Below, piece by piece: positions 2,983-58,801 of a stretch of 64,000 bases of DNA. A model generated the notes under the pieces. The model did not search any database and was not told the DNA's origin. It saw only the letters and a list, made by a program, of their open reading frames with translations. A program made the position numbers and the translations under genes. Location: assembly GCF_056712565.1 (NCBI RefSeq), contig NZ_CM160072.1. One strand, 5' to 3'. The first letter of the stretch is position 1; the number at the start of each line of letters is the position of its first letter.

Positions 2983-4260
2983 ATGCAACACAACTCATAT
3001 CGCCGTTGGATAACCCTCGCGATAATTAGTTTTAGCGGCGGCGTTAGTTTCGACCTGGCTTATTTACGTTATATTTATCAAATTCCCATGGCAAAATTTA
3101 TGGGATTCAGCAATACCGAGATAGGTTTAATAATGAGTACCTTTGGTATTGCGGCCATTATTTTCTATGCCCCTAGCGGCGTTATTGCCGATAAATTTTC
3201 ACACCGCAAAATGATTACTTCCGCGATGATCATTACCGGATTACTGGGCCTGATAATGGCAACATATCCACCACTGTGGGTAATGCTCTGTATTCAGGTC
3301 GCCTTTGCGATAACGACGATTTTAATGCTGTGGTCGGTGTCGATTAAAGCCGCATCGTTGCTGGGCGATCATAGCGAGCAAGGGAAAATTATGGGCTGGA
3401 TGGAAGGGCTGCGCGGCGTCGGTGTAATGTCGCTGGCGGTGTTTACCATGTGGGTCTTTTCTCGCTTTGCACCGGATGACAGCGCCAGCCTGAAAACGGT
3501 CATTATTATCTATAGTGTGGTTTACATTCTGCTGGGCATTTTGTGTTGGTTTTTTGTTAGCGATAACAACAATCTGCGCAGTGCCAATAACGAAGAAAAA
3601 CAGTCATTCCAGCTTAGCGACATCCTGGCCGTTTTGCGCATCAGCACCACCTGGTATTGCAGCATGGTGATTTTTGGTGTCTTCACCATCTACGCCATTC
3701 TGAGTTACTCCACCAACTATCTGACCGAAATGTACGGCATGTCACTGGTGGCAGCGAGCTACATGGGGATTGTGATCAACAAAATCTTCCGCGCGTTATG
3801 CGGCCCACTTGGCGGCATTATCACCACCTACAGCAAAGTGAAATCCCCTACCCGCGTGGTCCAAATCCTTTCCATCATCGGTTTGCTGGCATTGACAGCC
3901 CTGCTCGTTACGAACTCTAACCCGCAATCGGTCGCGATGGGGATTGGCTTGATTTTATTACTGGGATTCACCTGTTACGCCTCACGCGGGCTGTATTGGG
4001 CCTGCCCTGGCGAAGCGAGAACACCGTCTTACATTATGGGCACCACGGTAGGTATTTGTTCGGTGATTGGATTCCTGCCGGATGTCTTCGTTTACCCGAT
4101 TATCGGCTACTGGCAAGACACCCTGCCCGCTGCAGAAGCCTACCGCAACATGTGGCTAATGGGCATGGCGGCGCTTGGCATGGTGATCATCTTTACCTTT
4201 TTGCTGTTCCAAAAAATTCGTACTGCTGATAGCGCCCCCGCAATGGCTAGCAGCAAGTAA
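2983..4260 (+). CDS. yqcE: MFS family transporter
   Basis: 425 aa, multiple hydrophobic helices; synteny with K-12. Confidence 0.85.
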   Translation: MQHNSYRRWITLAIISFSGGVSFDLAYLRYIYQIPMAKFMGFSNTEIGLIMSTFGIAAIIFYAPSGVIADKFSHRKMITSAMIITGLLGLIMATYPPLWVMLCIQVAFAITTILMLWSVSIKAASLLGDHSEQGKIMGWMEGLRGVGVMSLAVFTMWVFSRFAPDDSASLKTVIIIYSVVYILLGILCWFFVSDNNNLRSANNEEKQSFQLSDILAVLRISTTWYCSMVIFGVFTIYAILSYSTNYLTEMYGMSLVAASYMGIVINKIFRALCGPLGGIITTYSKVKSPTRVVQILSIIGLLALTALLVTNSNPQSVAMGIGLILLLGFTCYASRGLYWACPGEARTPSYIMGTTVGICSVIGFLPDVFVYPIIGYWQDTLPAAEAYRNMWLMGMAALGMVIIFTFLLFQKIRTADSAPAMASSK

Positions 4261-51349: not shown

Positions 51350-51426
<77 letters not shown>

Positions 51427-51459
51427 ATTAAAATTTGATGAAGTAAAGCAGTACGGTGA

Positions 51460-51536
<77 letters not shown>

Positions 51537-51569
51537 ATCAAAATTTGATGAAATAAAGCAGTACGGTGA

Positions 51570-51646
<77 letters not shown>

Positions 51647-54396: not shown

Positions 54397-55734
54397 ATGA
54401 AAATTCATCGACCACTGTGGGCTGAGGGGACATTCCTGTCCTCTCAGCAGTTTCAGCAGCAGGCCCGCTGGGAAGCGTTCAGCAATGACTGTATTGCGCA
54501 GCTTTGTATTCGCCATCCGTGGGGGATCGCAAACGTGCTCTTTGACCGGGATGCCCTGACGCCCGGAAAGCTGAAAACGCAGGCAGTACGCCTGCGTTTT
54601 GCTGATGGCACGCTGATCGATTCAGACGTGAGTGACGTTCTGCCGCTCGCCTGCGATCTGCGCGCGCTGAAGAACGACAGCGCGATTGTTTTGCTGGCGC
54701 TGCCGCTTGCACATGGTAACGGCGGTAATCTCGGTCAGGGTGAGCAGACTGAAAGACCGCTGCGCTATCGTCAGGAATGGCAAAAGGTGCAGGATATCTA
54801 CGGCAGTGACAGTGAAGATATGGCCGTTGAGCGTCATGCGCTGTCCCTGCGCTTTGCTCATGATAACAATCAGGATTACATCACCTGCCCACTGGCGCGT
54901 CTGGTGCGGGATGTTCAGGGCAACTGGACACAGGATGAGAGCTATATTCCGCCGTTACTGGCGTTTAACGCCCATGACGGGCTGGTACAGCGTCTGGACA
55001 CATTGCTGTTGCAGCTACGGGCGAAGTGCCAGCGTCTGATGGCGATGCGCCGGGAAAGCAACCAGCGTATGGCGGACTTTGCCGTCGCCGATGTCTCCCT
55101 GTTCTGGCTGCTTAACGCGCTGAATTCCGCCGAGCCGGTGCTGAGCGATTTCCTGCGCTACCCGGCTGTCCACCCCGAACTGGTCTGGCGGGAGCTGGCG
55201 AGGCTTGCCGGTGCGCTGCTGACGTTTTCCCTTGAGCATAACGTCAGCGCCGTTCCGCCCTATGTCCACGAATCGCCGTCCACCGTCTTTCCGCCCCTGT
55301 TCTCCCTGCTCAGCGAGCTGCTGGAAGCCAGCCTGCCGTCGCGGGTGATCGCGCTGGATCTGGCGTCCCTGCCGGGCAACCGCTGGAAAGCCGACCTGCA
55401 CGATCCGCGACTGCGGGAAGAGGCCGATTTTTATCTGTCCGTTCGTTCCTCACTGCCTGCGCATCAGGTACTGCATCAGCTACCGCTGGTCTGCAAAATC
55501 GGTGCGCCCGATGATGTCACGCTGCTTATCAACGTGGCGCTGAACGGTGTTCAACTGGTGCCGCTTACCTCGGTTCCGGCGGCGCTGCCGCTGCGGCTGG
55601 AGAACCAGTATTTTGCGCTGGATATGCACAGTGACGCGGCTAAATCGATGCTGGAGTCCGGGAGCTGCATGATTTATGCGCCGGGAACCATGGGCGACCT
55701 GAAACCTGAACTGTTTGCGGTGCTGCGCACATGA
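54397..55734 (+). CDS. tssK: T6SS baseplate subunit TssK
   Basis: 445 aa, MKIHRPLWAEGTFLSSQQFQQQ... typical TssK N-terminus. Confidence 0.85.
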   Translation: MKIHRPLWAEGTFLSSQQFQQQARWEAFSNDCIAQLCIRHPWGIANVLFDRDALTPGKLKTQAVRLRFADGTLIDSDVSDVLPLACDLRALKNDSAIVLLALPLAHGNGGNLGQGEQTERPLRYRQEWQKVQDIYGSDSEDMAVERHALSLRFAHDNNQDYITCPLARLVRDVQGNWTQDESYIPPLLAFNAHDGLVQRLDTLLLQLRAKCQRLMAMRRESNQRMADFAVADVSLFWLLNALNSAEPVLSDFLRYPAVHPELVWRELARLAGALLTFSLEHNVSAVPPYVHESPSTVFPPLFSLLSELLEASLPSRVIALDLASLPGNRWKADLHDPRLREEADFYLSVRSSLPAHQVLHQLPLVCKIGAPDDVTLLINVALNGVQLVPLTSVPAALPLRLENQYFALDMHSDAAKSMLESGSCMIYAPGTMGDLKPELFAVLRT

Positions 55735-56396
55735 AAAAAGATATGGATATCAATATCGATGCGCTGCTGCGCGACACGTTTCTGACGGTGGTGGAACTGC
55801 GTCAGGGAACCACCGTGCGTCACGGTATCGAGCTGTATCGCCACTGTCAGCGGCAGGTGGAACTGGTCCGCGAACGTCTGAAAGATGCCGGATTCAGTCG
55901 GGAGAACGTGGAGCACATAACTTACGCGCAGTGCGCCCTGCTGGACGAAACGGTGCTCAGCCGTAGTGGCATGGACGACGGTCAGGCCATCTGGATGAAA
56001 AACCCACTCCAGTCGCATTTCTTCAACACCCTGCAGGCCGGTGAGCTGCTGTACGAGCGGATGAAGCAGGTGCTACAGGAACCCGCCCCCGCGCAGGCCG
56101 TGCTGACCTGCTTTCACCGTGTCCTGCTGCTGGGATTTCGCGGGCGTTATCAGGATCCGGCAGCCCCGGAGCGCGACCAGCTTATTTCGACGCTCAACGG
56201 GCAGGTCGCGCCATTTGGTGTGCTGCCGGAAACGGCGGTACTGAACGTGCCGTTATCCACCCGTCAGCACCCTTTGCTGCATTCGCCATTTTTCTGGCTG
56301 GTAACACTGGCGCTGCTACTGGCGGGCGTCTGGTGGGGGCTACACCACTGGCTGAATGTACTGGTGGATGAACTGCTGCCGCAAAGCCTGCGTTAA
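55731..56396 (+). CDS. tssL: T6SS membrane-complex protein TssL (DotU/IcmH family)
   Basis: 221 aa; cytoplasmic DotU-like domain then a single C-terminal TM (WLVTLALLLAGVWWGL); start overlaps tssK stop. Confidence 0.85.
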   Translation: MKKDMDINIDALLRDTFLTVVELRQGTTVRHGIELYRHCQRQVELVRERLKDAGFSRENVEHITYAQCALLDETVLSRSGMDDGQAIWMKNPLQSHFFNTLQAGELLYERMKQVLQEPAPAQAVLTCFHRVLLLGFRGRYQDPAAPERDQLISTLNGQVAPFGVLPETAVLNVPLSTRQHPLLHSPFFWLVTLALLLAGVWWGLHHWLNVLVDELLPQSLR

Positions 56397-56408: not shown

Positions 56409-58061
56409 GTGAGGAACACGCTGAAACAGGCCATCGTGCTGTGGGGAATGGTGTTACTGCTGGTGCTGTGGTCAGTGTTTATCAGTCCGTCTGGCGTGCT
56501 GAGATGGGCCGGTGCGGCGGCTATCGTTCTGGCGGTTGCTGCGTTGTTGATTTATCGGCGCAGGCAGGCGTGGACGGAGATGACCGGCGATGCCGGGTTG
56601 TCATCGCTGCCGCCGGAAACCTACCGACAGCCGGTAGTGCTGGTCTGTGGCGGTCTGTCGGCGCACCTGTTCACTGACAGCCCGGTCCGCCAGGTTTCAG
56701 AAGGGCTGTATCTGCATGTTCCTGATGAAGAACAGCTTGTGGCGCAGGTGGAGCGATTGCTGACCCTTCGCCCGGCGTGGGCATCGCAGCTTGCCGTGGC
56801 GTATACCATCATGCCCGGCATACACCGGGATGTGGCGGTTCTGGCCGGACGGCTGCGACGGTTCGCCCACAGTATGGCGACGGTGCGTCGTCGGGCAGGC
56901 GTAAACGTCCCCTGGCTTCTCTGGAGCGGGCTGTCCGGCTCGCCGTTGCCGGAAAGAGCGAGTTCACCGTGGTTTATCTGTACCGGCGGCGAAGTTCAGG
57001 TAGCAACATCCACAGAGAACGCGATGCCCGCGCAGTGGATTGCACAATCCGGCGTACAGGAACGCAGTCAGCGACTCTCTTATCTGCTGAAAGCCGAAAG
57101 CCTGATGCAGTGGCTGGATCTTAATGTGCTGGCGGAACTGAACGGCCCGGAGGCGAAATGTCCACCACTGGCGATGGCCGTGGGGCTGGTCCCCTCGTTG
57201 CCTGCGGTGGATAACAACCTGTGGCAGTTGTGGATCACCGCCAGAACCGGCCTGACGCCGGATATCGCGGACACCGGCACAGACGATGCGCTGCCATTCC
57301 CGGATGCCCTGTTACGGCGGTTGCCGCGTCAGTCGGGCTTTACCCCGCTGCGACGGGCCTGCGTGACCATGCTGGGCGTCACCACCGTGGCGGGTATCGC
57401 CGCGCTGTGCCTGTCAGCCACGGCAAATCGCCAGTTATTACGGCAGGTCGGTGACGATCTGCACCGGTTTTATGCCGTCCCGGTGGAGGAATTTATCACC
57501 AAAGCCCGTCACCTGTCGGTGCTGAAAGACGATGCGACCATGCTCGATGGGTATTACCGGGAAGGAGAACCACTGCGCCTCGGTCTGGGGTTATACCCCG
57601 GCGAACGCATCCGCCAGCCGGTATTACGCGCCATTCGCGACTGGCGTCCGCCTGAACAAAAAATGGAGGTGACGGCTTCGCTTCAGGTTCAGACCGTGCG
57701 TCTTGACAGTATGTCGCTGTTTGACGTCGGACAGGCCCGCCTGAAAGACGGCTCGACAAAAGTGCTGGTGGACGCACTGGTGAACATCCGGGCAAAACCG
57801 GGCTGGCTGATCCTCGTGGCCGGATATACCGATGCCACCGGCGATGAAAAAAGCAATCAGCAGTTATCGCTGCGGCGTGCCGAAGCGGTGCGCAACTGGA
57901 TGCTGCAGACCAGCGACATCCCGGCCACCTGTTTTGCCGTACAGGGACTGGGCGAGAGCCAGCCTGCGGCGACCAACGACACGCCACAGGGCCGGGCAGT
58001 CAACCGGCGTGTCGAAATCAGTCTTGTTCCGCGTTCTGACGCCTGTCAGGACGTGAAATAA
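56409..58061 (+). CDS. tagL: T6SS-associated peptidoglycan-binding membrane protein (TagL/SciZ-like)
   Basis: 550 aa; GTG start; N-terminal TM segments and a C-terminal OmpA/MotB-like domain (LILVAGYTDATGDEKSNQQLSLRRAEAVRNWM...GRAVNRRVEISLV). Confidence 0.8.
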   Translation: MRNTLKQAIVLWGMVLLLVLWSVFISPSGVLRWAGAAAIVLAVAALLIYRRRQAWTEMTGDAGLSSLPPETYRQPVVLVCGGLSAHLFTDSPVRQVSEGLYLHVPDEEQLVAQVERLLTLRPAWASQLAVAYTIMPGIHRDVAVLAGRLRRFAHSMATVRRRAGVNVPWLLWSGLSGSPLPERASSPWFICTGGEVQVATSTENAMPAQWIAQSGVQERSQRLSYLLKAESLMQWLDLNVLAELNGPEAKCPPLAMAVGLVPSLPAVDNNLWQLWITARTGLTPDIADTGTDDALPFPDALLRRLPRQSGFTPLRRACVTMLGVTTVAGIAALCLSATANRQLLRQVGDDLHRFYAVPVEEFITKARHLSVLKDDATMLDGYYREGEPLRLGLGLYPGERIRQPVLRAIRDWRPPEQKMEVTASLQVQTVRLDSMSLFDVGQARLKDGSTKVLVDALVNIRAKPGWLILVAGYTDATGDEKSNQQLSLRRAEAVRNWMLQTSDIPATCFAVQGLGESQPAATNDTPQGRAVNRRVEISLVPRSDACQDVK

Positions 58062-58118
58062 AACATACCGCCGGAAGAAGGCGGTGCTTCAATCACACTA
58101 ACAAGGAGAGTAATTCTC

Positions 58119-58610
58119 ATGGCTATTCCTGCTTATCTCTGGCTGAAAGATGACGGCGGCGCGGATATCAAAGGTTCCGTGGACGTTCAGGGGCGCGAAG
58201 GTAGCATCGAAGTGGTGGCGCTGGATCACGATGTGTACATCCCGACCGACAATAACACCGGCAAACTGACCGGTACCCGTACTCACAAGCCTTTTACGTT
58301 TACCAAAGAAATCGATGCCTCCAGCCCGTATCTCTACAAAGCTGTGACCACCGGACAGCCCCTGAAAACGGCGGAGTTTAAATTCTACCGCATCAACGAT
58401 GCCGGTCAGGAAGTGGAGTATTTCAATACCACGCTGGATAACGTCAAGCTGGTCAGAGTAGCTCCGCTGATGCACGACATCAAAGATCCGGGTAAAGAGA
58501 AGCATAACCACCTGGAACGCATTGAGTTCCGCTACGAGAAAATCACCTGGACTTACAAAGACGGCAACATCATTCATTCCGACTCGTGGAATGAGCGTCC
58601 TTCCGCCTGA
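58119..58610 (+). CDS. hcp: T6SS tube protein Hcp
   Basis: 163 aa, MAIPAYLWLKDDGGADIKGSVDVQGREGSIEV...; strong Shine-Dalgarno (aaggaga). Confidence 0.92.
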   Translation: MAIPAYLWLKDDGGADIKGSVDVQGREGSIEVVALDHDVYIPTDNNTGKLTGTRTHKPFTFTKEIDASSPYLYKAVTTGQPLKTAEFKFYRINDAGQEVEYFNTTLDNVKLVRVAPLMHDIKDPGKEKHNHLERIEFRYEKITWTYKDGNIIHSDSWNERPSA

Positions 58611-58617
58611 TAACTGC

Positions 58618-58645
58618 GGCAGACAGGAAACTGTCTGCCTTTTTG
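58618..58645 (+). terminator. rho-independent terminator downstream of hcp
   Basis: ggcagacag-gaaa-ctgtctgcc stem-loop followed by ttttt. Confidence 0.75.
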
Positions 58646-58801
58646 TTGTGTGCTTTGTCCAGTGCCGCAGGCACCGGTACTGAGCAAAGCATACCCACAA
58701 TCTGGTGAAACCTGATGGGCCTGAGTGAGGTAACGGCTATGGGCGGTAGCGTGCCTGAACGCGGATCGCAGGAATACAGAACACGATAAGGAAACCCTTC
58801 T

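Follow-up and report, generated by a model that had tools for sequence, protein, structure and literature searches.

A terminator-like hairpin and an RfaH-loading ops element lie in series between hcp and clpV of an Escherichia coli T6SS-1 cluster: a possible two-stage transcriptional valve

The gap between hcp and clpV in an E. coli T6SS-1 cluster was found to carry an intrinsic-terminator-like hairpin (T1) directly after hcp and, downstream of it, an exact ops element, and the two occur together in most of the related clusters that were compared. The most probable reading of this arrangement, which we put at roughly 0.6, is a two-stage valve in which T1 limits read-through after hcp and RfaH is then loaded at ops on the polymerases that pass. 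The elements themselves are of well-known kinds, namely what looks like an ordinary intrinsic terminator beside an already published ops. New here are the finding that T1 and ops go together across Enterobacterales, two additional hairpins that are conserved (H2 and P3) and the presence of hairpins on both sides of hcp. The anatomy of the gap, its conservation, the covariation of its hairpins and the absence of a recognisable sigma-70 promoter are direct observations.

The last 12 kb of the window (the whole 64-kb stretch of DNA that was analysed) carry an E. coli T6SS-1 (Sci-1-type) cluster in the gene order tssB, tssC, tssK, tssL, a tagL-like OmpA-family gene, hcp, clpV (tssH) and vgrG. The stretch between 58000 and 58900 is 100% identical to E. 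coli 19AR1321, and according to the annotation of the identical strain about 20 kb of co-oriented genes lie 3' of ops. The hcp–clpV gap spans 58611–58801 (191 nt) and is present at ≥90% identity in 1289 of 5426 complete E. coli genomes, as one copy per genome. The gene that follows clpV is named in the RefSeq annotation of the identical strain only as a "DUF2345 domain-containing protein", and its Pfam domains identify it as a full VgrG. Three tandem tRNA-Met genes (51350–51646) lie directly upstream of the T6SS cluster, an arrangement consistent with its insertion as an island at a tRNA locus. The features of the region are as follows.

54397–55734: tssK.
55731–56396: tssL.
56409–58061: tagL-like OmpA-family gene.
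58067–58085, plus strand: hairpin H0 (ACCGCC-GGAAGAA-GGCGGT) without a U-tract, between tagL and hcp; from the sequence and the folds of relatives.
58119–58610, plus strand: hcp (tssD), T6SS tube protein; ORF, Pfam T6SS_HCP (E = 6e-36) and RefSeq annotation in the identical strain.
58618–58639, plus strand: stem-loop of the putative terminator T1, 9 bp (6 G-C) with a GAAA loop; from fold, energy and covariation.
58640–58649, plus strand: U-tract of T1, TTTTTGTTGT; from the sequence, with U-rich tails kept in relatives.
58648–58694, plus strand: long hairpin H2, 19 pairs with one mismatch and a 7-nt loop, no U-tract behind it; from fold and covariation.
58695–58717, plus strand: conserved, mostly unpaired block CCCACAATCTGG...AACCTGATG; from alignments.
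58718–58738, plus strand: short hairpin P3, GGCC...GGCT; from covariation, in a JUMPstart-like position.
58742–58753, plus strand: ops element, with GGCGGTAGCGTG in the non-template strand, at which polymerase pauses and RfaH is loaded; exact consensus match.
58788–58804, plus strand: clpV ribosome-binding region (AAGGA) and ATG start codon; from the sequence and the ORF.
58802–61447, plus strand: clpV (tssH), first gene 3' of ops; ORF, Pfam AAA_2/ClpB_D2-small/Clp_N and RefSeq annotation in the identical strain.
61459–63939, plus strand: vgrG, next gene of the RfaH-dependent distal part; ORF, Pfam Phage_GPD, Phage_base_V, T6SS_Vgr and DUF2345.

The T1 hairpin starts 7 nt past the hcp TGA, and its arms GGCAGACAG and CTGTCTGCC enclose the GAAA loop. 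The U-tract abuts the stem directly and its run is broken after 5 U, and because of this interruption a partial efficiency of T1 is plausible. The original prediction of a GC-rich 9-bp stem with a T-run right after hcp, followed by about 150 bp of non-coding DNA before clpV, was borne out at 58618–58649, with 152 nt of non-coding DNA between the U-tract and clpV. This post-terminator stretch had been treated as featureless, and it proved to contain the exact ops as well as the conserved hairpins H2 and P3. Folded alone, T1 reaches −18.0 kcal/mol, as compared with −7.5 ± 2.4 kcal/mol in shuffled sequences (z = −4.4), none of the 200 shuffles folding as well; the stem-loop by itself gives −16.6 kcal/mol, and both values are in keeping with those of classic terminators. 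A G+C-rich stem-loop with ≥5 bp in the stem and 3–8 nt in the loop, a U-tract no more than 2 nt from the stem and the sense orientation just past a stop codon, by which intrinsic terminators are recognised, were all found at T1. A generic terminator scan returned 13 sites against 8.0 ± 2.6 in shuffles and is not discriminating alone. Of the terminator-like sites near the end of the window T1 ranked first, and it did so again when the complete 27-kb cluster was scanned in the identical strain; the other sites were weak or located inside ORFs or annotated genes. A bidirectional role of T1 or H2 was also considered and rejected, as a reading of the minus strand found no T-run after either hairpin.

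The conservation of these elements was assessed in relatives collected by an Hcp protein scan with one genome per species, which yielded 80 loci with Hcp identities of 82–98% from about 35 genera, mostly Enterobacterales. An OmpA-family gene lies upstream of hcp in 77 of the 80 loci, and clpV follows 150–330 nt after hcp in most of them. A hairpin with a U-tail was found 3' of hcp in 70 loci, either immediately past the stop codon or behind a repeat that is inserted there, and the ops core GGCGGTAG in 71. Both elements are present in 66 loci, T1 only in four, ops only in five and neither in five. When the 59 distinct spacers were aligned, 97.9% of the cells of the T1 helix were paired, with compensatory changes in eight of its nine pairs; the corresponding values were 83.7% and 9 of 14 pairs for H2, and 98.3% and three of four pairs for P3. 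The three hairpins together had 90.6% of cells paired, as compared with 36–53% when the partners were slid, and the observed value was reached in none of 500 shuffles. The T1 stems vary among relatives (GGCAGACAG, GCGGACAG, CAGCAGACGG, GCGGGCAG and others) and retain pairing. As the stems differ and are kept paired by compensatory changes, the T1 hairpin is under selection as a structure. Furthermore, G.U cells outnumbered A.C cells in T1 (34:5), H2 (106:22) and P3 (19:0), and this excess indicates that the three hairpins belong to the sense-strand RNA and not to DNA or an antisense transcript. These results together confirm, at the level of sequence, that T1 is a real and widely conserved intrinsic-terminator-like hairpin.

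Several relatives showed further variation around this gap. Those with a gap of about 290 nt carry an element of ~125 nt between the hcp stop codon and the terminator (L009, L024, L030, L036, L037, L042, L050, L058, L064, L065, L075 and L078–L081; about 2993–3120 of the loci), which by this placement would be hcp 3' UTR. The copy in L024 recurs at a median of nine places per E. coli genome, in unannotated intergenic DNA, and the element presumably resembles ERIC/IRU. A different post-hcp insertion, with short palindromes CCCCTCTCCCTGTGGGAGAGGG...GGGGTGAGGGG, occupies the T1 position in L006 and L040 (Serratia oryzae), about 2993–3160, and no good terminator was detected there. In three loci (L025, L035 and L049) vgrG and not clpV comes after hcp, and the ops core GGCGGTAG is still in the gap, which indicates that ops is associated with the region 3' of hcp rather than with clpV itself; the terminator is present in L025 and L035 and absent from L049. 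Five loci come from assemblies labelled as non-Enterobacterales, L009 and L013 as "Chryseobacterium sp. 18061" and L041, L044 and L066 as "Pseudomonas", and their Hcp is 84–87% identical to the E. coli protein. Because L013 shares its exact spacer with Citrobacter sp. 18056 (L014) from the same study, contamination or mislabelling is suggested, at least for the Chryseobacterium record.

The H2 hairpin is extended at its base by pairing of the T1 U-tract with an A-rich run 3' of H2, and the distal bases of the U-tract are shared between the two structures. It is retained in the Serratia loci L007 and L008, in which ops has decayed (GGACAGTAG and GGCCATAG), and in L056, in which ops is absent; the "Pseudomonas"-labelled L066, also without ops, has an H2-like hairpin (TTGAGCG...CGCTCAGCCAA) 3' of hcp. 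Because it is kept in loci with a decayed or absent ops, H2 is not simply a part of the RfaH site. In L007 and L008 the decayed sites at about 3110–3125 read GGACAGTAGCGTG and GGCCATAGCGTG, T1 and P3 being kept as well as H2, and these loci could be natural variants that have lost RfaH control. Candidate roles for H2 are to deny Rho an unstructured loading site, to serve as an RNase III-type processing helix, or to protect the U-tract from RNase E. Its being a dispersed repeat of the REP/ERIC type was rejected, as the 191-nt gap matches one place per genome in the 1289 E. coli genomes, and so was membership of an Rfam family, the only matches being sub-threshold hits to eukaryotic miRNA models that are far below the gathering scores and meaningless.

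The short hairpin P3 ends 3 nt before ops in every aligned sequence. The Rfam JUMPstart model (RF01707) matched 58723–58753 with 17.8 bits, below its gathering score of 35, and gave no match at E ≤ 1 in 12 relatives; no Rfam family was found at threshold in the gap. A 24-codon leader ORF at 58715–58789, which contains ops and begins with a conserved ATG, was dismissed: in relatives the corresponding ORF can be as short as 2 codons or reach at least 100, the upper limit of the scan, and ops is met in every one of the three frames, so the ATG at 58715 starts no conserved ORF. On the other side of hcp, H0 lies ~30 nt ahead of the hcp start. RNAalifold gave no structure for the tagL–hcp spacer, as differing loop lengths bring the arms out of register, and fold z-scores of individual sequences were used instead. 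Most relatives have equivalents of H0 with other stem sequences (the median z over 69 distinct sequences was −2.5, and 68% of them were below −2), and as these recur at the same place, hcp is bracketed by the conserved hairpins H0 and T1.

The ops element at 58742–58753 is the sole exact match in the window to the 12-nt consensus GGCGGTAGnnTG (bioRxiv 10.1101/2025.02.08.637259; Zuber et al. 2018). It lies 132 nt past the hcp stop codon and 60 nt upstream of the clpV ATG, in DNA with no conserved ORF across it and ahead of a long run of co-oriented genes. Of the known promoters, the one closest to it precedes tssB at a distance of about 6.5 kb, and no ops was found in the tssB leader with up to one mismatch allowed. 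This kind of element is known as a backtracking pause at C9 and U11, and RfaH loaded there excludes NusG and, through its CTD, brings the 30S subunit to the leader of the mRNA (Zuber et al. 2018). In EAEC 17-2, mutation of ops1 or an rfaH frameshift abolished sheath assembly, and a reporter inserted downstream of clpV was lowered by both mutations, unlike a reporter in the tssC–tssK interval (Taillefer, Desjardins & Cascales, bioRxiv 10.1101/2025.02.08.637259). The spacer of CFT073 differs from that of the window at 1 nt (210/211 identical), and at its tssH ops, also at −60 from the ATG, RfaH was detected by ChIP when hns and stpA were both deleted (Hustmyer et al. 2022, PMC9765446). In the same study, all eight RfaH-bound ops sites of CFT073 were classed as 5' leader sites, and ops-like sites within translated regions showed no RfaH binding (PMC9765446). 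With binding and dependence shown by others in CFT073 and EAEC, ops is an experimentally established control point of the hcp–clpV junction. A second site of the EAEC paper, ops2, would fall outside the window; when the gaps between the distal genes were searched in the identical strain, they contained no plus-strand GGTAGNNT. The E. amylovora T6SS-1 was described as having no ops, and the RfaH effect on it was called indirect (PMC9562583). In that study ops had been sought only upstream of the cluster; the Erwinia loci L028, L029, L050 and L075 have an exact ops in the hcp–clpV gap, and E. amylovora is among the ops-bearing clusters of the EAEC preprint (bioRxiv 10.1101/2025.02.08.637259).

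In the valve that we propose, T1 would act as a Rho-independent terminator and end most of the transcripts begun at the tssB promoter. The product of this first stage would be an abundant tssB-tssC-tssK-tssL-tagL-hcp mRNA, which carries the sheath and tube genes, with its 3' end shielded by the T1 hairpin, and hcp transcripts would be enriched. Hcp is required in far larger amounts than ClpV or VgrG. In the second stage, polymerases past T1 would cross the structured untranslated spacer with H2 and pause at ops, with P3 just behind, where RfaH would be loaded. The RfaH-loaded polymerases would resist Rho- and H-NS-dependent termination and couple to ribosomes, and could in this way transcribe clpV, vgrG and the ~20 kb of distal genes. 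As the tssB leader is without ops, polymerases would reach T1 without RfaH, and as ops sits downstream of T1, RfaH cannot relieve T1 and the two elements would act in series. The brake would be independent of RfaH for the same reason, only the long-distance licence being RfaH-dependent, and the placement of ops after the terminator would make the hcp:clpV ratio independent of RfaH. We infer that T1 terminates in vivo and does so only partially, that the polymerases reaching ops originate at the tssB promoter, and that H2 and P3 have the parts given to them here.

A different account of the gap would take T1 as the complete end of an operon and place clpV, vgrG and the distal genes in a separate one, driven by a promoter between T1 and ops or overlapping the 3' end of hcp. 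Such a promoter would have to be weak, activator-dependent or not of the sigma-70 type; ops would then belong to a 5' leader of the usual kind, and H2 could stabilise the 5' terminus of the transcript. We consider this unlikely. The promoter search covered sigma-70 and used a position-weight matrix of our own beside a consensus scan. The consensus scan of the gap returned no plus-strand sigma-70 promoter, no −35/−10 pair spaced by 16–18 nt was found, and the best position-weight score (4.75 bits) was below the mean of the shuffled bests (7.3 ± 2.0). Among the relatives, no promoter-like site occupied a conserved position, the best sites being non-homologous or located on TAGCGT within ops, and no sigma-54-like motif was seen by eye in the gap, the candidate bases falling in the variable part of H2. 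The original prediction had offered a separate clpV promoter as an alternative and promoter prediction in the gap as a check on it; this part finds no support in the sequence, whereas its strong terminator-like hairpin was upheld as a conserved one. A conserved CACAAT block about 45–60 nt upstream of ops is weakly −10-like and would suit a separate operon, but what is conserved between T1 and ops is compensatory pairing with an excess of G.U, which points to an RNA helix and not to promoter hexamers. Hustmyer et al. regard tssH as the beginning of an operon whose leader contains the ops, which speaks for a separate operon, as do the leader position of all eight bound ops sites and the lack of RfaH at translated ones, but the TSS of tssH is listed as "NA" and sigma-70 ChIP peaks are reported for other cryptic RfaH loci and not for tssH (PMC9765446). 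In K. pneumoniae a sigma-70 promoter was predicted upstream of tssB and none before tssH (PMC6580597). In strain NTUH-K2044 of this species, whose genes stand in the same order, the junctions from tssB to hcp were positive by RT-PCR and those at hcp|clpV and clpV|vgrG negative, from which its authors deduced independent transcription of clpV and vgrG (PMC6350951). Since clpV and vgrG are only 11 nt apart in E. coli, the negative junction between them suggests that the distal message is scarce, not that there are additional promoters. The sci1 promoter paper (Brunet 2011) contains nothing on operon structure or terminators, and a S. sonnei T6SS paper was set aside as a comparison, as it deals with another (EHEC-type) cluster. 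The boundary at hcp|clpV in K. pneumoniae supports the valve, as does the precedent of an hcp3 terminator in EHEC, and it lends indirect support to the originally predicted high hcp levels with attenuated read-through, which stay the most likely reading. The same RT-PCR counts against the valve in one respect, as it detected no read-through whatever.

The hairpins might also act mainly after transcription, with T1, and H0 on the 5' side, shielding a processed hcp mRNA from exonucleases, H2 being processed in the manner of an RNase III site, so that hcp and clpV mRNA decay independently of each other, and termination being minor. The rplL-rpoB spacer, in which an RNase III site accompanies a partial terminator, is an example of such an arrangement. 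Conserved hairpins do flank hcp on both sides, and the 19-bp helix of H2, lengthened by U:A pairs with the T1 U-tract, covaries and is kept in L007, L008 and L056. In EHEC, deletion of the hairpin after hcp3 lowers hcp3 mRNA (PMC13141884). A pure stability element needs no U-tract, but a canonical one lies right behind the T1 stem in most relatives, and protection of the mRNA is compatible with the valve and not exclusive of it; as the main explanation we give it a small chance. That T1 is a functionless chance inverted repeat might be argued from the terminator scan, in which such sites were only modestly above the shuffled expectation, but the folding z-score, the presence of the hairpin in 70 of 80 loci of many genera and the compensatory changes speak against it, and because of the covariation this reading is effectively refuted. 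The two-stage valve is thus favoured here, and two further points count against it. Since the other RfaH-bound ops of CFT073 are leader sites, loading in mid-operon after 6 kb of coupled transcription would not be a textbook case (PMC9765446). Furthermore, deletion of rfaH in E. amylovora lowers the whole T6SS-1 cluster without added polarity, which a simple valve does not predict (PMC9562583).

A broader reading, which we regard as doubtful, is that T1, H2, P3 and ops, together with H0 across hcp, form one composite module, a mid-operon RfaH switch directly after a terminator, with H2 needed for the hand-over. In such a module H2, paired with the U-tract of T1, may be an RNA element of a kind not described before that, for example, denies Rho a loading site or provides a processing site at which the stable hcp mRNA is parted from the distal message.

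Many Enterobacterales, pathogens and commensals alike, carry T6SS-1 clusters, which as a rule are not expressed under laboratory conditions. If a constitutive brake stands ahead of an RfaH-dependent licence, as proposed, this can explain the expression of hcp without the rest of the machine. Exchange of the upstream promoter alone may leave the distal genes inactive, a failure that the valve could explain. A search for ops only upstream of the cluster may likewise explain an "indirect" label for RfaH, as in the E. amylovora study (PMC9562583). The conserved H2 offers a concrete, testable element.

The hcp–clpV gap resembles several known systems in part. In rplL-rpoB and the pilin genes papA and fimA, a terminator or stabilising hairpin follows the most-needed gene and the genes for low-copy components come after it. 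The likeness of these systems to the gap is functional only, and we know of no RfaH hand-over in any of them. In the EHEC h3R region between hcp3 and vgrG3, a terminator hairpin lies ~8 nt past the hcp stop codon, as T1 does at a similar place, and it stabilises hcp3 mRNA and blocks vgrG3 expression from the upstream promoter (PMC13141884). The h3R region belongs to another T6SS cluster with vgrG3 as the downstream gene, ops and RfaH are never mentioned for it, and a promoter is predicted in its spacer (PMC13141884), whereas none was seen in the hcp–clpV gap of the window. The closest counterparts are the ops1 of EAEC sci1 and the tssH ops of CFT073, which share with the window the cluster type, the location in the hcp–clpV gap and the 12-nt consensus. 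Unlike the present account, the EAEC preprint does not use the word "terminator" (bioRxiv 10.1101/2025.02.08.637259), and the available part of the CFT073 paper takes tssH as the operon start and mentions neither a terminator nor the hairpins T1, H2 and P3 (PMC9765446). The JUMPstart/ops leaders (rfa, rfb, kps, hly and tra; RF01707) have in common with the gap an exact ops, an untranslated stretch, a long horizontally acquired operon and a short hairpin immediately 5' of ops, as P3 is here. The gap differs from these leaders in its sub-threshold RF01707 score and in its place, as its ops is probably not promoter-proximal and instead stands in the middle of the cluster, ~100 nt past the putative intrinsic terminator T1.
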